From the NCBI GenBank assembly GCA_038886535.1, contig JAVZXS010000001.1, positions 32,001-96,000 on the forward strand: a DNA stretch of 64,000 bases, read 5' to 3'. How positions within the stretch are numbered: the stretch's first letter is position 1; the number at the start of each line of letters is the position of its first letter. This stretch comes from Candidatus Micrarchaeia archaeon (lineage in GTDB: Archaea > Micrarchaeota > Micrarchaeia > CABMEP01). The position numbers and the translations under genes are program-made. This document shows, piece after piece, positions 39,033 through 56,135 of this stretch. The notes beneath the pieces were generated by a model that had not been told where the DNA came from, made no database searches, and saw only the letters and a program-made list of their open reading frames with translations.

Positions 39033-39131
39033 AGCCCGAGAAGGGATTTGAACCCTTGACCTCCTGTTTACGAGATTCGCCGAAACTTTATTATAAGTTT
39101 CTCAGGCGCTCTACCACTGAGCTACTCGGGC
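39033..39131 (-). tRNA. tRNA-Thr(CGT) with a 27-nt intron at non-canonical position 30/31 (intron 39076..39102)
   Basis: GCCCGAG-TA-GCTC..GAGC-G-CCTG|AGAAACTTATAATAAAGTTTCGGCGAA|T-CT-CGT-AA-ACAGG..AAGGG-TTCAAAT-CCCTT-CTCGGGC-T; complete bulge-helix-bulge. Confidence 0.93.
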
Positions 39132-39184
39132 TTAAATATTATTTCCAGATTATGTTTATAAAGGATATCAATAAATTATTAGAT

Positions 39185-40480
39185 ATGAAACATCTAGTGA
39201 TTTTAGTTTTAATTTCATCTTTTTTAATTTTCGGATGCATTGGAATCGAGGAAATAATTTCAGAGCCGACTACTTTTAGCTTGAATGGTACAGTTAAATC
39301 AATTAATGGAGATGCAATTCCAAATGCAAAGATAGAGATGATTTCTAATAAAACATACTTCACATATAGCGATGACAATGGTTTTTATAAATTTTCAAAT
39401 CTTACACAAGGAAGCTATAAAATAAGAATAACTAAAGAAGGATATAAGGATTATAATCTTTCATTTATTTTTTATCCTGGAAGCTATGATTGGAATTTTA
39501 CATTAGTTAAAGACTGTTTATATTATGAAATTCCAACAAAAAGAGATTATTTAGTTATATATGGTTATAATGGAACTTTGTATCGTACAGAATTAACTTG
39601 TGATTTACCTTATCCTGAAAATTCATTATTAAATATTTCTTTTGATGGAACAAAAAAAGATATTTATTATATTGGTCAGAATAGAATGGTACGACTTTCA
39701 ATCGATAATATTAATCAGAAATATAATTCAATCAAGTTCTATTTTTTAATTGCGCTTAATGGAACTAATAGCATAAAGATATTTGAAAGAAAGGAGACAA
39801 CTATACAGGAGGCTTCATCTTTAATGCAAAATTATCTTGGAGAAAGGACAATGACCGATGTTTCAACAGGAAAGACAAAGAAAATGATTGATCCAAATAA
39901 TGAAGAAATTAAGATGATTGTCACAGACATTAAGAAAAGAGTAAACAGTGATAATGTTTGGGATGTAGCAAGGGAATTATTCATTTGGCTTAAAAACAAT
40001 ACTTCCTATTTCAATCAAGGCGGGGTAGACGAATATGTTCAGTCTCCAGCTGAGATGATGAAATCAAGGAAAGGTGACTGTGATGAACTAAGCTATCTTT
40101 ATATCTCTCTTCTCAGGGCAGCAGGTATTCCTTCGAGATATGTAGAAGGGTTTTTAGCCAAAGAAAATGAAACTAGGTTCGTAAGGCATATGTGGGTTGA
40201 ATTTTACGATGGAGAGTGGGTACCAGTGGAGGTAGCAGGAACTGGAAAAATTGAAGATGAAGTTAATACTAATTTCGGTGTTGAAAGAAACATACACGTC
40301 CCAATCTTTATAGATGATGGGACACAGGCATCTTTCGAAAGAACCGGATGCAAATATAAGTATTATGTTCAAAAGCCAGAAGTATCAAATTATGCCTATT
40401 ATACTTCAATACCATTTGATGAAGCGTATATTGCAGTTTGTAGTAATGGAGAAAGATATATTACTTATCAAAAAGAATAG
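39185..40480 (+). CDS. lipoprotein with a carboxypeptidase-regulatory-like Ig domain and a transglutaminase-like domain
   Basis: Start reassigned to MKHLV because the ORF-track start overlaps the tRNA; lipobox LIFGC; G.V....G..IPNA...D.NG.Y.F..L..G.Y.I...KEGY; GDCDELS..LLRAAGIP.RYV.G..HMWVE. Confidence 0.88.
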   Translation: MKHLVILVLISSFLIFGCIGIEEIISEPTTFSLNGTVKSINGDAIPNAKIEMISNKTYFTYSDDNGFYKFSNLTQGSYKIRITKEGYKDYNLSFIFYPGSYDWNFTLVKDCLYYEIPTKRDYLVIYGYNGTLYRTELTCDLPYPENSLLNISFDGTKKDIYYIGQNRMVRLSIDNINQKYNSIKFYFLIALNGTNSIKIFERKETTIQEASSLMQNYLGERTMTDVSTGKTKKMIDPNNEEIKMIVTDIKKRVNSDNVWDVARELFIWLKNNTSYFNQGGVDEYVQSPAEMMKSRKGDCDELSYLYISLLRAAGIPSRYVEGFLAKENETRFVRHMWVEFYDGEWVPVEVAGTGKIEDEVNTNFGVERNIHVPIFIDDGTQASFERTGCKYKYYVQKPEVSNYAYYTSIPFDEAYIAVCSNGERYITYQKE

Positions 40481-40535: not shown

Positions 40536-41924
40536 ATGCCGCCTATGTTAAAAGAAATTCAAAATGAAAGAGAGGAAATAAATAAAATATTAGGAAAAAT
40601 AAAAGAAATAGCAGAAAGAAAAGTGACAGAATTCTCTATAAAAGATTTAGAGGGTGCAAAAGGGTCTTTTTTTAAGATTGAATTGAATATAAAAAATGAT
40701 AACTTTAAGAAAAAACTGATAAATGAAGTTTATGATTTTATTAGGGAAAATGGTTACCAGATTGTATTCAGATTGGGAGAGGAAAGTAATAAGTCAATAC
40801 TTTATATTGGGAAAAGTTATGCAAGAGAGATAAACTACTTTTTACCATCTAAAGACATCATTCAAGGTTTTATTGATGATGCAATAAAAAGAAAAAATCT
40901 TACTGGAAAGGGATCCGAGCTTTATGCAAATCCTAACATGGGAATATTAGTAAAAGTAAAAGATGGAAAGGTAGAAAACGTAGCAATCCTTTCAGGCGCT
41001 TCTATTTCAATCCCATTAAGGACAGGTACTTTTCAATTAGGACAATTAGAAAAAGGAGGATGGATCATACCCTCTGGAAGAAAGGGTTTTTCAGAACTAA
41101 GGGAGAGATATCCCGATTCTTTTTCTTCTTCAAACTCACCTTATCCTTGGAGTATATTTAATCTTATGGGATCAGCCAAAATATCATTTAAAGGAACAGA
41201 AAAGCTTCACTTCCGTTCTTTAATCTATCCTGGTTTTACTGGAGAGGCACCGTTAGGAAGTGAGGCAGGAATACTTGATGATCTTTACAATCAAACTACA
41301 GCAGGCTGCCTTTTTGTTGGAGAGGGTTCGTTCTACGCAATTAAGAAAGGGAATAAATACATAACTGGAACAGACGAAGAGATAAGAAAGAAAGATATTG
41401 GAGTCTTATTGCATAAAGGAGAACTTAATCTTGAGCCATTAGAAGTAGGAACTAGGTTAAGAATGAGGAATGGAGAATGGGCAACCCTTTCTCTTGACCA
41501 ATATAATAATCAGGTGTGGCTTGATGAAAATGGATATTATGTTCCCTTCGATTCCATAAACTTCGATTGGGATTCAAAAGAAATGCCTCAAATAGTATGG
41601 AAGCCACCAGAATTTGGAGAATCTAGATTTATAAATAATGAAATATCAAATAAACAGATTTATATAGATGATAAAAGATATTATATTGTGGAAAAAGATG
41701 ATAAATTACAGGTTGTTATATATCCTCAAAGATATTATACAAAAGGAAAAGATATGAAACAATTAAAAGAAGAAATAAAAGATAATTTGTCAAATCTACT
41801 TAATAGAAAAGATCTCGAAATTTCAGAAGATGAAATTAAAAACTTAGATTATGCAATTAAAATTGCACAACTTACACCTATTATGATAAATATTGACATT
41901 TCTAAATTTTACGCGGAGAGGTGA
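40536..41924 (+). CDS. hypothetical protein
   Basis: 462-aa ORF; no family recognised. Confidence 0.75.
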   Translation: MPPMLKEIQNEREEINKILGKIKEIAERKVTEFSIKDLEGAKGSFFKIELNIKNDNFKKKLINEVYDFIRENGYQIVFRLGEESNKSILYIGKSYAREINYFLPSKDIIQGFIDDAIKRKNLTGKGSELYANPNMGILVKVKDGKVENVAILSGASISIPLRTGTFQLGQLEKGGWIIPSGRKGFSELRERYPDSFSSSNSPYPWSIFNLMGSAKISFKGTEKLHFRSLIYPGFTGEAPLGSEAGILDDLYNQTTAGCLFVGEGSFYAIKKGNKYITGTDEEIRKKDIGVLLHKGELNLEPLEVGTRLRMRNGEWATLSLDQYNNQVWLDENGYYVPFDSINFDWDSKEMPQIVWKPPEFGESRFINNEISNKQIYIDDKRYYIVEKDDKLQVVIYPQRYYTKGKDMKQLKEEIKDNLSNLLNRKDLEISEDEIKNLDYAIKIAQLTPIMINIDISKFYAER

Positions 41925-41928
41925 TATA

Positions 41929-43467
41929 ATGTTAATTTTATTTCAACTTGCAATGCAAAAACCAGAACAAAAACTGACAGCAGAAAAACTTTTTGATAAT
42001 GCCAAATTGAAAAATTTAGAAAATAACGAAAGGAATGCATTAGAAAAACTAATTCAGCAAATGAGTTATGTGAACAACAAAGATTTTACTGATTCTGTAC
42101 GTAAATTCTTCAAATCAAACAAAGGAGAGATCAAATTTACAGGAATTTTTACTGCATCTGAATTAGATAATCTTGAGAAGGCACTTAATAAACTAGGCTA
42201 TAAATTTGAATTTTCAATCATTCCAAATGATGACGAACAAATTCAAAAGTGGTATAAATATACAAATAAAGATCCAGCTTTAGATATCAAAAATTTCATT
42301 AATTTCATGAATGGTGGTAGTGTTGAATTTGAGTTAAGTACGAGCAAAATATCAAAAGAATCTAATGAAGGAATGGACGGAACGCTTCAAGTTATGAATA
42401 TAAATATAACTACTATACAGAAAAATATTGATAATATTCAAGAAGATTTAAAAGGTATAAAGAAAAAGTATAATGATACATCTTCTACTCAAGTAGAACA
42501 ATCTAAATCAGAAGGAAAAAAAGAAGAGGAAGAGGTAAGAGAGCAAAAATCAGATGAAACATTGCAGAAAGCATTAGATCAAATTGGAAATATTCAAGTT
42601 AAAATTGGAGGCAAACAAACTAGAATTAATGAAATTTCATCTGCAAAATCTAAGCTTAAAAAACTGGAGCAAGGTCTTAATGAAGGAGAATCTGTTTCAT
42701 TCACTATGAATCCAAATCTAGTTATGATGAATAACTTAAAGGAAATTGCTAAATATTGGGCAGGAAAAGATGTAAAAGAAGAGCAGATTAGCGAAAACAA
42801 ATTTGTATATACTGGGGAAGGAGGGTCTTATGAAGTTAAGTATGAGAAAGGCCAATATATTATTACTCATCTTCAATCCATCCAAAAGAAAGAACCAAAG
42901 CAGGAAATAACAAATGTATTTTCTATGGAATTAATCATCAATGGAATAAACTTCAATAAGCCAGATACAGATGGTAAACATAAAGTTCAAAAGTTATTGG
43001 AAGGGAAAGAAGTAGAATATAATTATAAAGACTTTCCTAAAATCAAAGATGCATTCCTAGCTGAGATTAACAATAGAACAGGACGTACATATAAGTATGC
43101 GGCAGGTTATCCTAAACAAGTTGGTACTACTAATAAATATATCGTTAAATTAGAACTTGTGAGTGACGAAAAGTCAAACTCTTCATCTACGCAACCTCCG
43201 GAGGGAATGCAAAAACCAACAGAAACATCTAAACAAGAAAAAAAAGGTTCGACTACAAAAGAAACTAAAGAAGATATTTTAAATAATCTTTTAACTGAAA
43301 TAAACAAAAGCGAAAATTTAACGCAAACTGTGGCAAATATTCAGAGCGGTCTCCGTATATCTGTTTCTGCTGGTGAAATAACAAAGGATGATGCAATATG
43401 GATAGCGAACGAATTGAATAAAAAAATTTCTGAAAGAGATAGTAAATTAAAGATTACTATACTGTAA
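41929..43467 (+). CDS. hypothetical hydrophilic protein
   Basis: GAGGTG RBS supports the ATG at 41929; Lys/Glu/Gln-rich with low-complexity linkers. Confidence 0.75.
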   Translation: MLILFQLAMQKPEQKLTAEKLFDNAKLKNLENNERNALEKLIQQMSYVNNKDFTDSVRKFFKSNKGEIKFTGIFTASELDNLEKALNKLGYKFEFSIIPNDDEQIQKWYKYTNKDPALDIKNFINFMNGGSVEFELSTSKISKESNEGMDGTLQVMNINITTIQKNIDNIQEDLKGIKKKYNDTSSTQVEQSKSEGKKEEEEVREQKSDETLQKALDQIGNIQVKIGGKQTRINEISSAKSKLKKLEQGLNEGESVSFTMNPNLVMMNNLKEIAKYWAGKDVKEEQISENKFVYTGEGGSYEVKYEKGQYIITHLQSIQKKEPKQEITNVFSMELIINGINFNKPDTDGKHKVQKLLEGKEVEYNYKDFPKIKDAFLAEINNRTGRTYKYAAGYPKQVGTTNKYIVKLELVSDEKSNSSSTQPPEGMQKPTETSKQEKKGSTTKETKEDILNNLLTEINKSENLTQTVANIQSGLRISVSAGEITKDDAIWIANELNKKISERDSKLKITIL

Positions 43468-43817: not shown

Positions 43818-46800
43818 TTAATATCTTACTTTTAAGCCGAGATGTGCACTCCAATAAGTGTTGATTTTGCCATTGTAATTGAATTGATTAAGCGAAAGAC
43901 TACCAGAAATACGAACGTTTTCTTCCAATTTTGTTTCTGCTGAGAGTTTGGTGATTACTGATGACCATTTTCTTGATAAGGGATTGTAACCTGTTTCTTT
44001 ATAGTCTGTCTTTATAAGTTCGAAGTATCCAGTAAATCTATCTTTATCAGTCGCGTTTATACGCAAAGTATAGGAATCCCTTTCTCCCTTTAATAATTTC
44101 TCAATTTCTTTTGTTTCCCAATCTTGCAATGAATATCCAAATCCAATACCTAAAAGCCAATTGTTTTTTAATTCAAATGTTGGTTGGAAGAAATATATTT
44201 TATTATGGCTTTCCTCTTCCCTTGTTAGATGAGGTGTAAACCATTTACTATTTCTGTTATTTCCTTCATAATAACCAGTTATATCTGTTGAAAGTCCAAA
44301 GATTTTTGTTTTTATTATTTCCATCCCAATATGTACTAAATTCTCGTATATTTTATTTACATTACTGGTTTCAATATTAAGGTTATTACTATATTTATAA
44401 CTATCTTTTATTTTAGTTTCACTATAACCGAAATCAAGTTTAGTATTACCAAGAAATATAGTTGTATACGGATTCATTTTCGTTTTTAAATATTCATCAA
44501 ACGTTTTTGAATCTAAAGTTCCACGGAATTTAGTAGTTTCAGTTTTTTCCATTTTTTCGATTCCAAACCCGGGTTGTATCTTAGCACCCCATGCATAGAT
44601 GGTATTATATATCAAAACAGTAGAAAATTCGCTACCTTTAACCATCTTTTCTCCAGCTTTGCTCTCCCCATAAATTCTTTCATGATTATAATAGATTTTA
44701 TTTACAGTTAATCCAGATCCATTCGGATCTTTTGTTTGATATCTAAATTCTTCTCCCTTGCCACTTAGATATGTATCTACTTCATATGCCCATTCATCTA
44801 TACTCTTTTTATTAATATTCCAAAGTCCAGATAAGTTAAGTATTTTCTCAAAATGATAGTCAATTGATCCTATTACGCCGATACTTTTTTCTCTTCTTAA
44901 GTAGTCTCTTCTTTCTTCTTCCTCCGTTTTCTTTTGGAGTTCTTCCTTTCTTTCGGCTTTGAAGCCTGTAACTTTTATTTTGTCTATTACTCTAAAACCT
45001 TTGGTAATTACATTAAGCATATATTGTAGGTTTTCATTAGTTGCAATTCCATTGTCTATTAGTGGCTTTCCATCGTGTATAAATAAAGTAACTCCAGTTC
45101 CATCATCACGTCTATAATCAATCATTCCACCAATCATTGTAGTTTCTCCAAGCCAACCTCTCATAGTTGCTAAAGCTTGCTTTCGGTTCCTTTCTTCCCA
45201 CTTTAGCATAAGATCTTTATAATCATCTGCAGTTATTTCATTAATATTTCCTTGTTTCGTCAAATTAAAAATTCCTCTTGATTGGATTGGTTCTGTTGTT
45301 AAATAGTTTATACTTGAAGTGATTGTTGCTATACCTTTTGATCCGCCAATACGCGAAACTCCATTGACGTTTGTAATGTATTTTTCCTCATTATTTTCAT
45401 TAACATATCTTATAGTTTTCATTTCTATTTTTGAATCTATATAATTCATGTAACTCATCGAAGCTATATTTTGTATCAAACTAACTTTGATTGGAACCAT
45501 CTGATTTTGAACCGGTATTTGTGTGTCTTCACCTATATTAATTTCTACACTTTTATTATCTAACAGTGTTCCTTTTGAATCTGACATAGCAATGTCAAGT
45601 TTAGCTTTTAGTTCAATTCGAGATCCAATACGCATTCCTGTGTCACTAATTTGTAAGAATATTTCATATTTGTTTCCTTTTTCATCTCTTAATTCAATCG
45701 GTTTTGATGGTTCAACTGCTATTTCCATCCCTCTAAAATTAAGCTTAATTAATGTTGTCTGTTGCATGAATTTATCAATAGCTTTCGCTATTTCAGCTTT
45801 CGGCACTATTATTTCTATATTATATCTCTCATTTTCGATTGCCAAGGGAGTTGGTGTATTAGTTGGTATTTTATAACTATTTACAACTTGAATTGTATCG
45901 TCTTTGCCTTTCTTAACAAAATCCATCCAAACGTATACATTAGGTTTACCACTTTCATCTACTTCTATTATCGGATTTGAAATTCGATAGCCAACCTCAT
46001 CTTTCCAGTTGATCTCCCCTTTATAATTCTCTACTTCCGATTTACCTTTTGTCGTTATTTTTACAGTACAGTTGTTGATATTACCTAAATATGAAGGTAT
46101 ACCTGCCTTTTCAGCTATTTCTGCTGTTTGTAAAAGACCTTGGTATACGCCCCATAAAGTAGGATCGACTCTTCTTTCAGTAATTTTTTCATTTATCGAA
46201 GCATAAAAGAAATTTGGATCACCATTCATTTCATATATTAAAGATTTATCCTTTTCAGTTTTAGTAGAAAGAATAAAATATGCTCCAGTTTTTGCATTTA
46301 TACCATGTGTAAGAAGCGAATTTTCAGTTGTAGAATAGTACCTATAATAAGAAGGTCTTCCTCCTTTTCCGCCGAATAATGTATCAATAAGATCTGATGC
46401 TTCTGCTTCAAACACTTTTCTCTTTTTTGGATCTTTAGGCCACTCACCTCTAAAGTATTCTTTTGAGTAACTGTAATCACCTGTTTTATTGTAGTTTATT
46501 CCGTAAATTACTTGGGTTCCATCTTTATATCTAATTACTGCTACAGAATCAAAATGTCCTGTTGTTTCATTTTCCCATCTTTGACTATTCGCATTTAGAT
46601 AAAGTTCAAAACTATCGATGTTCGAGTGTTTTTCCTTTTCAATTGCAGATGAAAGCAATATTGTTTCAATTGTTTTTAGATCAAGAGTTCCATTAGGTTC
46701 AGTTTCTAGTGGTTTTTTCTTTTCTTTTTTGATAGAAATAGGTGTTTCAATATAACTACTGCCAGTTTCTTGTATTCGTTTCTGGAAATTTTTGATTATT

Positions 46801-47537
46801 TGCTTAGTAGCTGGATCGAATATATTTGATTTTATATCAATTTTTTCGTTATTATTTATCTTATTAAAGTTTTCATATATTTCTCTGATTGGAATCTCTA
46901 AATTTGAAAGAAAAGCTTTTCTTAGAGATTCATATTCGTCTCCTTTATACACCATTGCTAAATATACAATTGTATCTTCTAATGTAAGATTTTGTTTGTT
47001 TAATTCACCTATTAATTTATAGAACATATCATTAATTTGGTGGAGTCCTTGAGCATTAGCAAGATCTTGAATTGCCACATCAATATTTTTAAGTCGGCCT
47101 ATTTTTTCTTGAGGCAAAGTATTATTTATAATATTATCAATATTTTGTTTATTTTTTTTATCTAGTTTATCATAATAATTTTTCCATTCCTTTTCATACT
47201 CTTTATCTTTAATTCTTTTTTCAGCGATAGTAGCATAAGATATGCTTCCTTTTAACAATAAGTCAATATCATTTTTTACTTCGATTTTCTTTTTTTCTAA
47301 GTTGATAGTTTTCTGTGCACTCACTTTATCACCCATCCTTTCCACCTTTATAGTATTACTCATTTGATTTTTAAATCCTTTTATACTTGTGTCCTTTGCA
47401 TTTAGTGGAAGGATCAGTGGTTCAACTAGCAGAAGAGAAGCAAGTGTAATTCTAGCTAATCTTTCGATTTTTCCACTATTCTTATAGAATCTTAAATACT
47501 CTTTCTCCTGCATAAAATCAGCAAAAATAAGACGCAA
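43818..47537 (-). CDS. very large orphan protein with a beta-barrel-like C-terminal region (true start may be the ATG at 47336)
   Basis: 1239-aa ORF; last ~350 aa are amphipathic beta-strand-like, ending YWSAHLGLKVRY. Confidence 0.8.
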   Translation of the reverse strand: MRLIFADFMQEKEYLRFYKNSGKIERLARITLASLLLVEPLILPLNAKDTSIKGFKNQMSNTIKVERMGDKVSAQKTINLEKKKIEVKNDIDLLLKGSISYATIAEKRIKDKEYEKEWKNYYDKLDKKNKQNIDNIINNTLPQEKIGRLKNIDVAIQDLANAQGLHQINDMFYKLIGELNKQNLTLEDTIVYLAMVYKGDEYESLRKAFLSNLEIPIREIYENFNKINNNEKIDIKSNIFDPATKQIIKNFQKRIQETGSSYIETPISIKKEKKKPLETEPNGTLDLKTIETILLSSAIEKEKHSNIDSFELYLNANSQRWENETTGHFDSVAVIRYKDGTQVIYGINYNKTGDYSYSKEYFRGEWPKDPKKRKVFEAEASDLIDTLFGGKGGRPSYYRYYSTTENSLLTHGINAKTGAYFILSTKTEKDKSLIYEMNGDPNFFYASINEKITERRVDPTLWGVYQGLLQTAEIAEKAGIPSYLGNINNCTVKITTKGKSEVENYKGEINWKDEVGYRISNPIIEVDESGKPNVYVWMDFVKKGKDDTIQVVNSYKIPTNTPTPLAIENERYNIEIIVPKAEIAKAIDKFMQQTTLIKLNFRGMEIAVEPSKPIELRDEKGNKYEIFLQISDTGMRIGSRIELKAKLDIAMSDSKGTLLDNKSVEINIGEDTQIPVQNQMVPIKVSLIQNIASMSYMNYIDSKIEMKTIRYVNENNEEKYITNVNGVSRIGGSKGIATITSSINYLTTEPIQSRGIFNLTKQGNINEITADDYKDLMLKWEERNRKQALATMRGWLGETTMIGGMIDYRRDDGTGVTLFIHDGKPLIDNGIATNENLQYMLNVITKGFRVIDKIKVTGFKAERKEELQKKTEEEERRDYLRREKSIGVIGSIDYHFEKILNLSGLWNINKKSIDEWAYEVDTYLSGKGEEFRYQTKDPNGSGLTVNKIYYNHERIYGESKAGEKMVKGSEFSTVLIYNTIYAWGAKIQPGFGIEKMEKTETTKFRGTLDSKTFDEYLKTKMNPYTTIFLGNTKLDFGYSETKIKDSYKYSNNLNIETSNVNKIYENLVHIGMEIIKTKIFGLSTDITGYYEGNNRNSKWFTPHLTREEESHNKIYFFQPTFELKNNWLLGIGFGYSLQDWETKEIEKLLKGERDSYTLRINATDKDRFTGYFELIKTDYKETGYNPLSRKWSSVITKLSAETKLEENVRISGSLSLNQFNYNGKINTYWSAHLGLKVRY
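47325..47352 (-). repeat. 28-bp sequence TATAAAGGTGGAAAGGATGGGTGATAAA, identical to 51393..51420 in inverted orientation
   Basis: Direct comparison; covers a GGTGG RBS-like element plus the codons for MGDK. Confidence 0.92.
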
Positions 47538-48180: not shown

Positions 48181-48627
48181 ATGTATTTTGACATAGTTGA
48201 CTTTCCTATTGATGAAAGTATAGAAAAAAAGAGCCAGTTTAAATTCTATAGGTTGTCAGATATTAAAGACCTTTTCCTAGTAGGAGATCCAGAAAAAATA
48301 ACAAAGTTAATAAGAAAAGGAAAGATTCTCTACTGTCCTAAATATGAGATATCCTTAGAGATGTTTGCAAAGGCAAAATCACTAAATAAACCATTTTTGA
48401 TCTCTCTTTCAGACATTATAACTGAAAAACCACATTTAGCAATTTACAGGATTTCAAATTTCATAAGAGTTGGAAGGCATTATAAATTGAAATTTATCAT
48501 CGCTTCATTTGCAAAGGATAAATACTCGGTAAGAAGCATAGATGAAGCTGCATCAATAATGAGACTTTGCGGAATGAGCAAGGATCAAGTAAGGCAGTCT
48601 TTCATGCTTATTAAAAGATATCTATGA
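48181..48627 (+). CDS. short, divergent RNase P protein Rpp30 (p30)
   Basis: Lies between rpl15e and pop5; C-terminal IIASFAKD.YSVRS...SI..L.GM matches the Rpp30 tail. Confidence 0.65.
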   Translation: MYFDIVDFPIDESIEKKSQFKFYRLSDIKDLFLVGDPEKITKLIRKGKILYCPKYEISLEMFAKAKSLNKPFLISLSDIITEKPHLAIYRISNFIRVGRHYKLKFIIASFAKDKYSVRSIDEAASIMRLCGMSKDQVRQSFMLIKRYL

Positions 48628-50045: not shown

Positions 50046-51170
50046 ATGAAAGAAGGTGGAAAGATGACTCAAGTTCAAAAGGAAAAATTTGATATTGATA
50101 AATTTATAAAAGATTATTTAGATCAAGTTGCACCTAATTCTTTTATAGAAAAAATAAGGTTAAATAATGATATAAAGTTGATCCGTTCTGACCGAGAAGG
50201 TATTATCATAGAATTTAAAGACGAATCTCCAAGAAATAAATTTCTTGAATCTTTAGATAAAGGCTATAATGCTAAAAAATATTATAGATTTGGAATCAAG
50301 ATCAAATCAGATGATCTTATAAACATGTATAGAGAAGAGACAGAAAAATTAGAGCAACAAAAAGTTATTGAGGAAGTTAAACCTCAAGAAATTGAAATTT
50401 CTTCCATTCCTATCGCTGAAATACAAGAATCTACTCAGTCTTTAGAACAATCAATTAAGGAAATGGAAAAAGTAATAGACAAAATACAGCCAGAACAAAA
50501 AAATAAAAGTGACAAATTAAAAACAATTAAAAAATGGACAAAGGAGTATTTCGAAGACACAAAAACAGTTTTGAAATTTGCTAAAGAATATCTCTCTGGG
50601 AAATATAAGGATGAAGCTATAAAGGCAGAAGAAACTAAACAAAAACTTATACAATTACTGACTAATAAAAATAAAGAATTAACTGAAAAACTAATGGAAG
50701 TTAAAAAAGAGCTTGCTGTAGAGAAAGAAGAAAATAAACAAAAGATAGTAGAGCTTGAAAAGAGGCAACAAGAAATTTTAGCACAACAGAAATATTTATT
50801 GAATCTATTAGAAGGAGGCAAAAAAATAGGTAAAAAGATAAAAGAAGAAGAGTTAGAGAAAAAACCTATGGAGAAACAAGTAGTTTCTGTTTCAACAGCG
50901 ACAGTTTCTAATACGTCTCAATCTCAAACCATTGCGAAATTCAGTAAATTAGAAGATATTAAAGAAGAAATAATTAATAGTGTTGGTAAATTAACAAATA
51001 CACCTAAAGATAGCATATCTCTCAATCGAAGCGATTTTGATACTACTTTTTTAAACGATCTTTTAAACAAGCGGCCTTCAGAAGTAGAAGTAAAGATAGG
51101 TAACAAAAATATAACCTACGTTATAGATGTAAAACAAAAATTTGTTATTTTAAAGATGAAAAAAGAATAA
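50046..51170 (+). CDS. hypothetical coiled-coil protein (alternative start ATG 50064)
   Basis: 374-aa ORF with a central coiled coil; AAGGTGGAAAG precedes the second ATG. Confidence 0.72.
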   Translation: MKEGGKMTQVQKEKFDIDKFIKDYLDQVAPNSFIEKIRLNNDIKLIRSDREGIIIEFKDESPRNKFLESLDKGYNAKKYYRFGIKIKSDDLINMYREETEKLEQQKVIEEVKPQEIEISSIPIAEIQESTQSLEQSIKEMEKVIDKIQPEQKNKSDKLKTIKKWTKEYFEDTKTVLKFAKEYLSGKYKDEAIKAEETKQKLIQLLTNKNKELTEKLMEVKKELAVEKEENKQKIVELEKRQQEILAQQKYLLNLLEGGKKIGKKIKEEELEKKPMEKQVVSVSTATVSNTSQSQTIAKFSKLEDIKEEIINSVGKLTNTPKDSISLNRSDFDTTFLNDLLNKRPSEVEVKIGNKNITYVIDVKQKFVILKMKKE

Positions 51171-51249: not shown

Positions 51250-54200
51250 ATGTCTATTCGTGATTATAAGAAGATAGCTTTAATCAGAGTAAATAAACTC
51301 ATATTTTCATCTTTTCTTCTTTTTGAGCCACTATTTGAACCAATATATGTAAAAGAAACAAAGGTATTTAAATACATACAAAATAATAGTAGTATAAAGG
51401 TGGAAAGGATGGGTGATAAATTGGCGACTGCACAGAAGCAAAAGGAAGAACAGGAAAAGATTCAAATAGAATGGCCTATTGATTCTTATAAAAAATTAGA
51501 TACTATTTATAAAATCATAAAAGAACTTGAATCAAAATTAGATAATAAAAAGAAAAAGGAAATAGAAAAAATATTAGAGTCAGTAGGTTATAGAGGTCTA
51601 ATTTCTGCTATAGAAAATTATAGAAATGGCTTAGTTGAAATGAAAGTGCCAGAGAATTATGCAAATATGAAACGCGATGGTTCTATAACTTTTTTCATGG
51701 AAGCTAAAATGTTTTTCCTTGTAGCATATATCACTGAAAACGAAGAAATGGCTAATGCAGTATTAGATGCTATTAAAAATAGAAAAAAAATCGATATAGG
51801 CTACTATATGGGCGGGTATGGAAAAGGAACGAAATATTTTCTTAACCTTAATCCAGAGAAGTCACAAATTGCAAGTCTTTATAGAGTCTTAAAAAGATTA
51901 AAAGAAGAAGGTTATGATATTTCTCAAATAGATTGGAATGGAGTATCTTATGATACTGGTAAAGGAAACCCATTTCAGAGGTTAGATGAAATATATAGCG
52001 CAGGTGAATATCCTCAAAATTATGAGGTTGAGATGTACAATTTATTAAAGAATTATATCTCTACTAAGAAGACAAATAAACCTCTTAGAAATGTAGACAT
52101 GGATCCGGAAAAAGGTAACGTGATTCCTGATCTCACCCTTAGAGAAATGTATGGTAAAACTAAAAATGAAATAAATAAACTTTTAATTGAATTGATTTCA
52201 AAGTATCCTGAGGTTGCATATTTTATACCAGATATATATTCGGATATTACAAGTATCTTAGTCAAGGAAGGATTTAATAAATATATAGGAGATCCAAATA
52301 ATAAAGATAAAGGAAAGCTATTTGAGAAAAAAATGGATGAAGCTGTAAATTACATGGAGGCATTAAAACTATGCTTCGAGAGTATAGAACAAAACATGCC
52401 TAAAATAATTGAAGCTATTCAGAAAAAAGATTTTCTTAAATTATACCCACCTCTTGTAGCGAAATTAATAAGCGACAGCATTCAAAATAAAGACATAAAT
52501 CTAGAAAAAATGTCTAAAAATGATATAGAGTCGCTTAGAATTAAAATTATCAGTTCATTTCTTACTAATACGTTACCAAACTACGCTAATTATTCAGAGT
52601 TGCATATAATTTCTAATCCTTGGTTTAAAGCAATTTATTTTGATGGAAAAAAGAGAATCAGTGCAACATTAACAGAGAAGGAGGTACAAAATGCAAAAGA
52701 AATTCTTAAGAAGAAATGGGAATCTTTTATTTTAGTACCTAAAGATATAGTAACTACAAAAGAAGAGAGAGATCCAACCTTTGATTCAATATCGGATACA
52801 ATTTACAATGATATGGATGCGAAAGTATACGTATTCGATGTGAAAAAAAGACAATACACTAAATATGTTAATGGTTCATTCCCATTAATACTTCAACCTA
52901 TAAATACCACTGCCCTTCGAAAGACAGTTGGAATTGGGGAGAATTGGCCAAGGGGAGACAGATTTAATATAGATTTAGGTTGGTTTGATAAAAATTATTT
53001 GTTAGAAGATGGTTGGAAATTTTCTAACAGCTATATTGATAAAACCTCTAAAGAAAAGATAGAGTTATATCAGAGAAAAGATGAAACATTAGAAGTCATA
53101 TTAAAAAACGAAGAAATTATTTCATTTAACTATTATCCGTGTCCATTAAAAGTCTTAGGTTTATTCGAATTCACAAGAGCAAAATTAATTACAGTTCAAA
53201 AAACTGAAGACGGATTTAAAATAAGATGGGAGATTATTCCGCCGTATGGCAGATACAGTGGTGCAAAATTATTAACTAAAAATAATTTTGCATTTAATAG
53301 AGACAAAAGGGATGCTAGATTATCATTTGTTGAAAGGGAATATTTACCAAAACCTCCAATTATTCCTTCAGCTACATCAAGAATTAGCGTTCAAGGTCTT
53401 TCATTTGATCCCAACTCATTCTATAGCGTTGCAAATGATTTGGGAATAAATATAGATTATTTAAATAATCTCTATTATTCTTCTATAGATTTGGAAAAAG
53501 CATTATCTTCTGGAAGAGAAGAAGATATAAACAATGCAGCTTGGAAATTAATTCAATCTGCAAGAGATTTTACCTCTGTAATATGGGATAGTAAATTAGC
53601 AAACGATTCTTCGCTTTCAAATTCAGATAAAGAATTTCTGCAGTCATTTAAAGATGGCAAAGTAAACGACTTAAATAGATGGATAGATATAATGAAAGGT
53701 AGAAATTATGGAGGTGCTGCGGATCTTAGTAGAATATTTTTAGCTAAGAGTCAAGCCACAACCGATATCACAACCTCTATGAAAATTAATACCTTTTCAA
53801 TTGCATTAGAGAAGCCCATTAATATGATTCCTTTGAAAGATGCTTCAATATTATCTTTTTCAGGTATAACTTATGGAAGAGCAACTACAAAGTTAGATGG
53901 AATGCTGACTACTACAATACAGGAAATAAATCCAGATGGTACCTACAGTGATCCAATTGTGACACAGCAGAAAATTCATTTTGAAGAAAGCGATGGTTTA
54001 TGGGGTGGGACTTTTGATTTTGGTCGTACTAAAAAAGGAAAGTACGGTAGTTTAAATCTTCTTTTTGGTAATGGTTTTAGGCACTTTGATTTTATTGGAG
54101 CAGGAGATAACATTGTTGATTCGATTTTGACTAAAAAAAATCTATTGCAGATAATTGCAAGCATACCTCAAGCAACTAAGTTAAGTTACACTCAATACAA

Positions 54201-54585
54201 CCTTTTTGGTACTGATTATTATAGCACACGTATAGAAGCAAAATATATATCTTTATCACCACTATCTGACTTATTATATTTGTTAACTGGAAAGAAGGTC
54301 TCTCCCGTATTAGACCTAGGATTAGGTGACATATTCGAATATGATAAAAAAGAAGGTATGAAGTTGAATAAAGAAAAGTTCTCATATGTCGAATCCACAT
54401 TTAATCTCGGTAAGGCATCTACATACATTAGAAAGGAGTTAGGTGGAACTAAAGCCACAGAGATTTATGCATCTTGGAAGAAACCATTTAATGTCGACTT
54501 CTTAGACGAGGTTGGAATGTATGGTAGATGGAATGCTTTGGAAGGCTCTAATTACGGCTTTTCAATTAAAATAGGATTAAAATAA
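51250..54585 (+). CDS. very large orphan protein with a beta-barrel-like C-terminal region (true start may be the ATG at 51409)
   Basis: 1111-aa ORF; helical N-terminal half; C-terminal amphipathic strands ending GSNYGFSIKIGLK. Confidence 0.8.
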   Translation: MSIRDYKKIALIRVNKLIFSSFLLFEPLFEPIYVKETKVFKYIQNNSSIKVERMGDKLATAQKQKEEQEKIQIEWPIDSYKKLDTIYKIIKELESKLDNKKKKEIEKILESVGYRGLISAIENYRNGLVEMKVPENYANMKRDGSITFFMEAKMFFLVAYITENEEMANAVLDAIKNRKKIDIGYYMGGYGKGTKYFLNLNPEKSQIASLYRVLKRLKEEGYDISQIDWNGVSYDTGKGNPFQRLDEIYSAGEYPQNYEVEMYNLLKNYISTKKTNKPLRNVDMDPEKGNVIPDLTLREMYGKTKNEINKLLIELISKYPEVAYFIPDIYSDITSILVKEGFNKYIGDPNNKDKGKLFEKKMDEAVNYMEALKLCFESIEQNMPKIIEAIQKKDFLKLYPPLVAKLISDSIQNKDINLEKMSKNDIESLRIKIISSFLTNTLPNYANYSELHIISNPWFKAIYFDGKKRISATLTEKEVQNAKEILKKKWESFILVPKDIVTTKEERDPTFDSISDTIYNDMDAKVYVFDVKKRQYTKYVNGSFPLILQPINTTALRKTVGIGENWPRGDRFNIDLGWFDKNYLLEDGWKFSNSYIDKTSKEKIELYQRKDETLEVILKNEEIISFNYYPCPLKVLGLFEFTRAKLITVQKTEDGFKIRWEIIPPYGRYSGAKLLTKNNFAFNRDKRDARLSFVEREYLPKPPIIPSATSRISVQGLSFDPNSFYSVANDLGINIDYLNNLYYSSIDLEKALSSGREEDINNAAWKLIQSARDFTSVIWDSKLANDSSLSNSDKEFLQSFKDGKVNDLNRWIDIMKGRNYGGAADLSRIFLAKSQATTDITTSMKINTFSIALEKPINMIPLKDASILSFSGITYGRATTKLDGMLTTTIQEINPDGTYSDPIVTQQKIHFEESDGLWGGTFDFGRTKKGKYGSLNLLFGNGFRHFDFIGAGDNIVDSILTKKNLLQIIASIPQATKLSYTQYNLFGTDYYSTRIEAKYISLSPLSDLLYLLTGKKVSPVLDLGLGDIFEYDKKEGMKLNKEKFSYVESTFNLGKASTYIRKELGGTKATEIYASWKKPFNVDFLDEVGMYGRWNALEGSNYGFSIKIGLK
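51393..51420 (+). repeat. second copy of the 28-bp sequence (inverted relative to 47325..47352)
   Basis: TATAAAGGTGGAAAGGATGGGTGATAAA. Confidence 0.92.
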
Positions 54586-54611: not shown

Positions 54612-56135
54612 TTGTATTTTCTACGATCCAATGTTTCCATATTTTACTTTATTATATTTCTTTCTTCTTTAATTAACGCCATAGATATTCAAACAATATT
54701 TTTATCACACATTAATAATCAATATAATGCTACAGTGAGATTTAACGCTGTAATTCCGTTTAATATATCTTATGGTTCAGTTATAGTAACAAATGGGAGT
54801 TATGTTTGTACTGGTTCTCAATTAGGTTTAACAGCAAATAATATCACTACATTTTCTCCAATTTCGGTTGTGGTTGAATGTCCTCGTGAATGCTCTACTT
54901 ATTCTTCTCCATCATCTTCTTTCCCACAATCTATTTTATGGATTTCAGAAAATGCCTATAATGCAAACAAATCACAATACAATATTACAAGATCTTGGTG
55001 TAATTATAGCAGATTCGCTCAACCCGAACATCCTTTGGCGCAATATAATTATACTTCTATTTATAAATTGCCAGTTAAGCAAACTTCTGGCATTGCAAGT
55101 TTGGGTGTTTTTTGTTATGGGAACATTTCTTTTTATGAGAACAACAATCAAATATCTTCTCCATTCACAGTTTCTTCAACTGGATTAGCTTATTTGTCTG
55201 CAAGATTAATTACAGGAGAATGTTCTTTGCTAGCTAGATCATTTGAGACATCAGGTCCTACTTTAGATTGCTGGTATAGTAATCAAATGTTAAATAACTA
55301 TGTATTTGAAAATTCCACTGAAATTAATGTAATTTCAGGTCCAAACCTTACCCTCACTCCTACTCAATCTGATTATGTTGTGACACCTGGGGGAACGGTA
55401 ACATTTAGGTTTAAGCTAAATAACTCAGGTGATATGAATGCTACTATTTCTGGAGTTACAGTATCTGACGGTTTTTCAGTTGATTCATTTTCACCTTCAA
55501 CTATAAATGCGGGAGAGGTTGTAGATTTTACAGTGTCAGCAACAGCACCCAGTCTGCAGGCAGGAACAACCGTCACTCCTACCATAAGTTTTGACTTCAA
55601 TTCTACAGTTCCAATAATAGGTACATGTGGTGCAGCATCGGTTGCAAATGTAAATGTAGGAAATGTACTTATTGGAGACATTAATCCAATAAATGTAAGG
55701 ATTTATGCAACTCCATCAGGATTCTTTAATGAAGGAAACACATTTCTTCCTTCAAAGTTGAATATAACAGCAAGAATATGGAGAGAAGATCCACCTAATC
55801 TATATTTGAGTGACGTCGTCACGAACATATCAATCTATTATTATAATACAACTCTCAAGAACTGGAGATTGAAATTTGATGTGACCGGCATTTCTGGTTC
55901 AACTGGTTCAGCTACCGAAGATGAAAGAAAGATAGCGTGGTGGAATAATGCAGAAGGAATATTCATTAATCTGAATGAAACAATTTCATCTTCCTCTCCA
56001 TTTAGCTATGTGCCTGGCGTTTATAAGGTTGAAATCAGATCTTATGATGGTGCAGCAACAAGAGGAAGCAAGATTCAAACTGATTCTAGCTATTTTGTAA
56101 TATTCAACCTTCCAGGATGTGCAAGAAAGGTATAA
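54612..56135 (+). CDS. secreted Ser/Thr/Asn-rich surface glycoprotein with an Ig-like (CARDB/NEW3-like) domain
   Basis: Signal peptide; many N-x-S/T sequons; V.PGGTVTFRFKLNNSGD.NAT...FTVSATAP Ig-like module. Confidence 0.8.
   Translation: MYFLRSNVSIFYFIIFLSSLINAIDIQTIFLSHINNQYNATVRFNAVIPFNISYGSVIVTNGSYVCTGSQLGLTANNITTFSPISVVVECPRECSTYSSPSSSFPQSILWISENAYNANKSQYNITRSWCNYSRFAQPEHPLAQYNYTSIYKLPVKQTSGIASLGVFCYGNISFYENNNQISSPFTVSSTGLAYLSARLITGECSLLARSFETSGPTLDCWYSNQMLNNYVFENSTEINVISGPNLTLTPTQSDYVVTPGGTVTFRFKLNNSGDMNATISGVTVSDGFSVDSFSPSTINAGEVVDFTVSATAPSLQAGTTVTPTISFDFNSTVPIIGTCGAASVANVNVGNVLIGDINPINVRIYATPSGFFNEGNTFLPSKLNITARIWREDPPNLYLSDVVTNISIYYYNTTLKNWRLKFDVTGISGSTGSATEDERKIAWWNNAEGIFINLNETISSSSPFSYVPGVYKVEIRSYDGAATRGSKIQTDSSYFVIFNLPGCARKV

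Follow-up and report, generated by a model that had tools for sequence, protein, structure and literature searches.

The window analysed here is a stretch of 64,000 nucleotides from a Candidatus Micrarchaeia archaeon (assembly GCA_038886535.1, contig JAVZXS010000001.1, positions 32,001 to 96,000 of the forward strand); the genome to which it belongs, hereafter G000, comprises 1.14 Mb in 40 contigs and is 88% complete. Its minus strand encodes a giant protein of 1239 amino acids (aa), named here the A protein (P0001), whose C-terminal part had been described in the original prediction as resembling the beta-barrels of bacterial outer membranes. The A protein carries an export-type leader and belongs to a hypervariable family restricted to one lineage, and its tail has sequence features like those of outer-membrane proteins. 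The best explanation is a protein that a hot-spring lineage of Micrarchaeia exports, that diversifies rapidly and that serves at the envelope or in contact with a host, and we give about even chances to the tail being a porin-type beta-meander barrel.

The A protein and its gene

The interval flagged in the original prediction is the 3' third of one long open reading frame (ORF; Table 1), and both the size given for this ORF and the six peptides quoted from its translation, which ends in ...YWSAHLGLKVRY, were borne out. Two starts compete: the TTG of the longest ORF, from which residues are counted throughout, and an ATG 8 codons downstream (residue 9), at which the public record of 1231 aa begins; the true length is probably 1231 aa, from the ATG. 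The surroundings of the gene are archaeal, with ribosomal protein L15e, RNase P Rpp14/Pop5 and the proteasome alpha subunit adjoining, and the guanine plus cytosine (GC) content at the locus is about 0.30, the same as in the remaining window. An RNase P p30-like gene is also present; it is short (148 aa), and its Pfam match, at 21.3 bits below the curated cut-off of 35, is confined to the C-terminal third of the model.

The gene is genuine, and purifying selection acts on it. Uninterrupted full-length orthologs are found in genomes G007, G008, G003 and G005, and comparison with the 95%-identical ortholog of G007 gives a ratio of non-synonymous to synonymous substitution rates (dN/dS) of 0.26 overall. 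The ratio is highest for residues 81-300 (0.58), and residues 856-1239 are the most constrained part of the protein between these two genomes (0.13; 11 synonymous and 6 non-synonymous changes). A spurious ORF, or a tail that is a decayed remnant without function, would agree with the lack of any matching known family, and with the sequencing runs listed as containing the gene, wholly or partly, which include 7 hot-spring metagenome runs and no RNA run. This explanation is nevertheless contradicted already by the dN/dS values of the whole protein and of the tail, by the stop-free orthologs and by a full-length relative from elsewhere that is 32% identical, and its probability is close to nil.

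The leader is the sole segment in which the mean Kyte-Doolittle hydropathy over 19 residues exceeds 1.6 (1.82 at residue 27), its hydrophobic residues extending from about 27 to 45. By its make-up it is probably a cleavable Sec signal peptide, cut after LNA; a type IV pilin-like signal was considered and dropped, because the leader, as read from its sequence, is without the expected cleavage context. No hydrophobic helix follows, the maximum 19-residue hydropathy after residue 120 being 0.75. The leader is conserved in both paralog families (A and B, the latter described below) and forms, together with the motif IKVERMGDK, the best-conserved part of the family, in which M68, G69 and D70 vary hardly or not at all. 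The motif [VYC]ERMGD[KR] occurs in only 2 of the 2396 ORFs of G000, those of the A protein and of paralog B (P0003). Two gene callers begin the relatives P0007 and P0010 at the M of MGDK or MGDR, and the leader is lost.

Residues 76-300 are presumably a helical stalk, to judge from their composition. For the central domain that follows, Pfam, NCBIfam and PHROGs give no family and the sequences of solved structures no match, and the second beta-rich domain (residues 561-855) is collinear with the G008 and G003 orthologs at 23% identity. A charged stretch lies at the place of the charged linker in other members of the A family as well, and by its position this segment recalls the linker helix of autotransporters; in a complex prediction residues 836-882 scored 0.00 with the beta domain in two runs without controls, which is evidence neither way. 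The beta-rich tail begins at about residue 883. Of the 350-440 aa originally proposed for the barrel, the last 357 or so show the barrel-like pattern, and the flagged residues 797-882 fall outside the tail, in the preceding domain and the charged segment (856-882). Sequons for N-glycosylation are not enriched in the A protein (11 against 12.4 +/- 3.1 expected).

Table 1. Positions in the window of the parts of the A protein and of the genes around it.
Feature	Residues	Position	Strand	Remarks
A protein, whole ORF	1-1239	43818..47537	-	1239 aa from TTG; ATG at residue 9
Alternative starts of the A protein		47513-47537	-	TTG of the longest ORF or ATG 8 codons downstream
Leader	1-47	47397..47537	-	Basic stretch, hydrophobic core ITLASLLLV, then EPLILPLNA
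Predicted mature N-terminus	48-75	47313..47396	-	Conserved motif, including IKVERMGDK
K/E/I/N-rich region	76-300	46638..47312	-	K 15%, E 10%, I 14%, G 3%
Central domain	301-560	45858..46637	-	Motifs DTLFGGKGGRP, GDPNF and NCTV conserved best in the alignment
Second beta-rich domain	561-855	44973..45857	-	Part of the putative passenger
Charged linker KAERKEELQKKTEEEERRDYLRREK	856-882	44892..44972	-	Directly N-terminal of the beta tail
Porin-like beta domain (putative)	883-1239	43821..44891	-	About 14-17 candidate strands
Last strand HLGLKVRY (candidate)		43821..43844	-	Polar-x-G-x-x-hydrophobic-x-hydrophobic, aromatic end
Transglutaminase-like gene		39056-40480	+	Heads the cassette
462-aa cassette gene		40536..41924	+	72% identity in G008; locus marker across genera
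524-aa neighbour		41893..43467	+	Hypervariable, 29% identity G000 versus G008
RNase P p30-like gene		48181-48627	+	148 aa
374-aa gene upstream of paralog B		50046..51170	+	Hypervariable, 36-39% identity over part of the length between species
Paralog B (P0003)		51250..54585	+	1111 aa; same leader and ERMGDK motif; tail ends in NYGFSIKIGLK
507-aa protein		54612-56135	+	Directly downstream of paralog B

Sequence features and models of the tail

The run of strands with alternating hydrophobic and polar residues, on which the barrel proposal had been founded, does exceed chance: residues 880-1239 contain 13 alternating windows of 10 residues, against 5.3 +/- 2.0 in shuffled sequences, and none of 500 shuffles reaches 13. 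The pattern is, however, not specific to the tail. The middle domain (residues 461-820) is similar, with 12 windows against 6.6 +/- 2.1 (6 of 500 shuffles); the densest 300-aa window of the A protein starts at residue 401, outside the tail; and the densest-window value of 11 is reached by 9 of the 663 ORFs of at least 200 aa in the genome, some of them cytoplasmic-looking. A genome-wide screen for alternation did not single out barrel candidates, and this statistic cannot separate a lipid-facing side from a buried core. Moreover, 27% of the tail residues are charged (D, E, K or R).

The lack of specificity and the charge weigh against a barrel and favour the main alternative, i.e. that the tail is a soluble beta-rich domain (a sandwich, a solenoid or an open curved sheet) of a hypervariable adhesin or of a protein associated with the surface layer (S-layer). 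Its likeness to outer-membrane proteins would then come from alternating strands, aromatic residues and the amino-acid make-up of a low-GC genome. We regard this as a serious possibility, although on balance not a probable one, and the observations that follow bear on both sides of it.

The beta-signal of transmembrane barrels has the form polar-x-G-x-x-hydrophobic-x-hydrophobic. A review places such a motif on the last strand (PMC8292188). In the A protein the pattern is found, with a terminal aromatic residue, in HLGLKVRY at the very end, and NYGFSIKIGLK at the end of paralog B fits it as well. Within the last 16 aa it is present in 17 of the 663 ORFs, including these two, while in the family it is present in 6 of 12 sequences (4 of 9 lineages when near-identical pairs are merged), against 15 of the 661 other ORFs; this enrichment argues against a soluble tail. 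The aromatic last residue, which had been part of the original argument, is there in the A protein, and F or Y closes 7 of the 12 sequences of the family, but such an ending is common in G000, where the last residue is F, Y or W in 84 of the 663 ORFs.

The features of a protein language model bring residues 880-1239 nearest to a cluster of CymA porins (0.96, with 173 of 256 features shared), and further near clusters are those of the LptD C-terminal domain, BBP2 and SlipAM. The tail of the G008 ortholog, which is 19% identical, falls in the same CymA cluster (0.95, 171 shared features) and also near SlipAM; that two such divergent members reach the same porin cluster with 171-173 shared features is not what a soluble domain would lead one to expect. 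On the other hand, the query with the G008 tail has a recognition value of 1488 against a reference mark of 2300, which is rated weak evidence and favours a soluble tail, and the statistics of this tool are not calibrated for parts of proteins. Insertions and deletions between the A protein and P0007 tend to lie outside the predicted strands, into which only 2 of the 21 gap columns fall; these strands are not better conserved than the remainder (26% against 32-33% elsewhere), which is a point against a barrel.

Structure prediction, proposed originally as the decisive check, yielded no closed barrel with a hydrophobic belt and no soluble sandwich either. AlphaFold models of residues 797-1239 have a mean predicted local distance difference test (pLDDT) of 30.7 from the single sequence, and the tail modelled with 7 sequences reaches 38.2, with a predicted template modelling score (pTM) of 0.35. 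That no closed barrel was obtained, in models this poor, counts for the soluble alternative. In the 7-sequence model the last 130 or so residues are better, with a pLDDT of about 48-65; they are arranged in four strands, each 12-15 residues long, with connections of 4-7 residues between them; 3-5 helices are also set in the tail by this weak model. Strands of 12-15 residues are longer than is usual in soluble sandwiches, and the mature protein has no other anchor, both of which speak for a barrel and against a soluble tail.

Among 48,161 chains, the best structural neighbours of the model are the KdgM porin (4pr7, Z 6.0, root mean square deviation (rmsd) 2.9, 89 residues aligned), SAM-Mdm10 (Z 5.7) and the beta domain of the BrkA autotransporter (Z 5.7, rmsd 2.8, 83 aligned), and 18 of the best 50 are transmembrane barrels by title. 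All Z values are nevertheless at most 6.0, under the 7-8 that is typical for unrelated models, and soluble curved sheets (for example START-like proteins and levivirus coats) stand in the same list at the same Z, as the soluble alternative would have it. Foldseek, the other structural search that had been suggested, gave no match for the 7-sequence model in the PDB at E 0.001 or better.

Known families do not help the barrel either, and their absence again favours a soluble domain. Pfam, searched with 12 tails at E up to 10, gives no outer-membrane family save OMP_b-brl (E 0.35) on the fragment P0008; in profile searches OMP_b-brl, Autotransporter (PF03797) and KdgM are not found in the G000 genome; and the tail is without a sequence match to any solved structure. 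The whole A protein matches 0 Pfam and 0 NCBIfam families.

Relatives of the A protein and its variable locus

The A protein had been called an orphan, which is nearly right. A phmmer search with residues 797-1239 against 1.84 billion representative sequences gave 3 matches: the protein itself, a fragment of 134 aa (P0008) and P0007 (1142 aa), which is 32-33% identical over the whole length and is the one full-length relative among them. The taxonomic distribution, whose survey had also been suggested, places the relatives in one genus, with a syntenic look-alike in a sister genus. At the level of the order 6 of 10 genomes match the A protein, all from one genus; in the sample of the phylum 5 of 401 genomes match, 4 of them in the same genus and the fifth marginal and with stop codons. 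The protein has nothing in PHROGs, as in Pfam and NCBIfam, nor any meaningful match to sequences of solved structures.

Other searches add little. Word-indexed protein searches with the tail, with a 10-sequence alignment and with the tail of P0009, the look-alike of the sister genus, returned their own cluster only, and these blanks say little because the alignment search missed the known P0007. A scan of metagenome contigs gave 208 pattern matches with no relatives among them, and a scan of genome contigs gave no relatives beyond two already known. Profile comparison finds a weak collinear match between the A-type tail and the G008/G003-type tail (E 0.016, 221 columns, probability 2.8) and no match between the A-type tail and the tails of paralog B or P0009. 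In the literature searched, no account of a protein of this kind came to light for Micrarchaeota; a possible relative of PopA in Altiarchaeales, mentioned in passing in one paper (PMC12228718), is the only published hint found.

Between G000 and G008 the leader of the A protein is 50% identical and the body about 23%, while genes flanking it are 72%, 75%, 92% and 56% identical. Paralog B, encoded 4 kb from the A gene, has a body unrelated to that of the A protein and a tail that is also beta-rich; its counterparts in G008 and G005 have only the leader in common with it. Such a pattern marks a surface family that is specific to its lineage and under diversifying pressure, and the hypervariability agrees with exposure of the surface to a host or viruses.

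The A gene closes a cassette in which it follows, on the opposite strand, the genes of a transglutaminase-like protein, of the 462-aa protein and of the 524-aa protein. The cassette is also found in G007, G008 and G004, and G000 has a second copy of it at a distance of 4 kb. In the sister genus (G001) a homolog of the 462-aa protein, 35% identical, adjoins P0009, a protein of 1286 aa (L034:351-4208, plus strand) in a genome of higher GC, which is syntenic with the A protein. The leader of P0009 is alike (LLAEGLILP ... SMGDRK), and its tail is rich in Gly, Ser and Ala, beta-rich and ends in GGYKF. This tail has no detectable sequence similarity to that of the A protein, and its alternation is not above shuffles (6 windows against 4.8 +/- 1.9). 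The public annotation of P0009 is an 'Uncharacterised protein' of 1153 aa starting at the M of MGDRK, with the leader lost.

The transglutaminase-like protein is exported-looking, carries a CarboxypepD_reg domain and is conserved in G007 and G004. The 524-aa and 374-aa genes are as hypervariable as the giants beside them and match no known family; the product of the first is a candidate partner of the A protein, and both may co-evolve with the giant proteins as partners. The 507-aa protein has a weak CARDB/Ig-like match, 9 cysteines and 19 N-glycosylation sequons against 10.0 +/- 2.7 expected, and by these features is probably a glycosylated surface protein. Neither NCBIfam nor PHROGs gave a match on the cassette proteins. 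A viral or mobile origin of the cassette was dropped, because housekeeping genes lie inside the locus and PHROGs was blank.

Cell envelope, membrane insertion and known systems

The insertion of transmembrane beta-barrels is held to depend on machines of the Omp85 family. Such barrels are themselves held to be restricted to the outer membranes of bacteria, mitochondria and plastids, as stated in the introduction of the review (PMC8292188). The original prediction called for a search for Omp85/BamA-like genes, and none was found: in G000, within its 88% completeness, neither Omp85 nor POTRA has a match at E up to 1, and of 401 genomes of the phylum that were sampled, 0 match Omp85. The control scores over the cut-off in 7 diderm bacteria. 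The lack of Omp85 too weighs against a barrel.

The envelopes of cultured relatives point in the same direction. Cells of the archaeal Richmond Mine acidophilic nanoorganisms (ARMAN) were first read as two-membraned (Klingl 2014, PMC4243693), and thin sections of the cultured hot-spring ARM-1 were first read as showing inner and outer membranes (Sakai 2022, PMC8784108). Cryo-tomography has since identified the 'outer membrane' of ARM-1 as an S-layer (Johnson et al. 2024, PMC11329633), and Micrarchaeum harzensis has an S-layer as well (Gfrerer et al., bioRxiv 10.1101/2021.04.28.441871). S-layered relatives, and a phylum in whose sampled genomes no Omp85 was found, speak for the soluble alternative.

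For the same reason, i.e. that the outer layer of cultured relatives has been re-read as an S-layer, a resident outer-membrane protein is the least likely version of the barrel. It would require that the lineage has a true lipid outer membrane, with the A protein as an autotransporter-like resident. The first readings of ARM-1 and ARMAN, the proposed order of signal peptide, passenger, charged linker and beta tail, which mirrors that of classical autotransporters, and the beta domains of BrkA and NalP among the weak structural neighbours agree with this. The S-layers of ARM-1 and M. harzensis do not, and neither does a genome with only two such proteins, in which no porin, Omp85, POTRA or autotransporter family is found; besides, the family is confined to one lineage and is hypervariable, which core envelope proteins are not. 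We consider it very improbable. The original prediction had left open either an outer membrane of the archaeon itself or a pore inserted into a host membrane: the barrel reading has survived the indirect tests, and the first of these two destinations is weakened by the lack of Omp85 and by the S-layers.

Oligomeric barrels assemble without the beta-barrel assembly machinery (BAM), and the tail might accordingly contribute hairpins to a large ring, secretin-like or of the kind formed by pore-forming toxins. A structure of this type has been described in the envelope of ARM-1, where a secretin-like, barrel-shaped docking complex of 21 nm and of unknown composition lies beneath the S-layer and could, as its describers suggest, consist of symbiont proteins (Johnson et al., PMC11329633). 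The PulD secretin (Z 4.3) and the RCD-1 pore (Z 4.5) are among the weak structural neighbours of the tail. No Pfam match was obtained, however, for secretin, aerolysin/ETX-MTX2, leukocidin or MACPF domains on the A protein or its relatives, and the A family is not found outside one family of the phylum (the 5 of 401 genomes, one marginal). An oligomeric ring is improbable in our judgement.

The reading that we prefer, with a probability that falls a little short of an even chance, is a barrel that is monomeric and independent of BAM and that fixes a hypervariable exported protein in a lipid layer distinct from the cytoplasmic membrane of the cell itself, most likely a layer of the host. The Sec-type leader would be removed at export, and the N-terminal motif, the helical stalk and two globular domains would make up a passenger of about 830 residues. 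After the charged linker, the last 357 or so residues would form, as a monomer, an antiparallel beta-meander barrel like those of bacterial porins or autotransporters. Nothing else in the mature protein would be membrane-active, and this barrel would insert without any Omp85 or BAM machine. Since the cultured relatives carry an S-layer and not a lipid outer membrane, the membrane of another cell, the host, would be the most likely target; there the barrel would provide anchorage and might also be a pore for uptake. Both the architecture and the hypervariability fit a protein that is inserted into the membrane of a host and bears a large passenger at its N-terminus. The fullest form of this proposal, in which the barrel enters the host archaeon's membrane unaided, with no BAM, and the symbiont gains both an anchor and a conduit, seems to us unlikely.

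If true, a porin-like barrel at the end of an exported protein, in an S-layered archaeon from a phylum in which no Omp85 was found, would break the rules on both the occurrence and the insertion of such proteins, being a transmembrane beta-barrel outside bacteria and organelles. It would also point to an actual protein of the apparatus, as yet unknown, by which Micrarchaeota contact their hosts, and would give a molecular handle on the way in which DPANN archaea tap theirs. If the tail is soluble, the finding is reduced to a surface family that is specific to one lineage and evolves fast, with a leader conserved to an unusual degree.

Three known systems can be compared with the A protein: (i) bacterial porin-like barrels; (ii) type Va autotransporters; (iii) OmpM/SlpA tethers. 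The barrels of KdgM/NanC (12 strands), CymA (14 strands), Slam/SlipAM and BBP2 have, like the A tail, alternating strands and a beta-signal pattern with an aromatic end; they provide its nearest language-model clusters and, with KdgM 4pr7 (Z 6.0), its best structural neighbour. Unlike them, the A tail gives no profile match to these families, is more charged, is attached to an N-terminal part of 880 residues and belongs to an archaeon in which no Omp85 was found, and its barrel is putative.

Type Va autotransporters have the order of parts proposed for the A protein, namely a signal peptide, a large variable passenger, a charged linker and a C-terminal beta domain; of these parts, the leader and the charged linker can be read from the A sequence. 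Two such autotransporters, BrkA (Z 5.7) and NalP (Z 4.2), appear in the list of weak structural neighbours of the A tail. They differ in that they use an outer membrane and BAM, neither of which is probably available to the A protein, and in that the Pfam family Autotransporter (PF03797) is found neither on the A protein nor in its genome; the A tail, of about 357 aa, is also longer than a 12-strand translocator.

The OmpM/SlpA tethers of Deinococcus-Thermus and Negativicutes consist of an N-terminal wall anchor, a coiled-coil stalk and a C-terminal porin-like barrel. The A protein departs from them in having no SLH domain and no sequence similarity, in its two extra globular domains and in being hypervariable and not conserved. 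It is alike in its conserved N-terminal module, in its K/E-rich stalk, predicted to be helical, and in its C-terminal beta domain, and the S-layer complex of Deinococcus (7zgx, Z 4.4) is among the structural neighbours of its tail.

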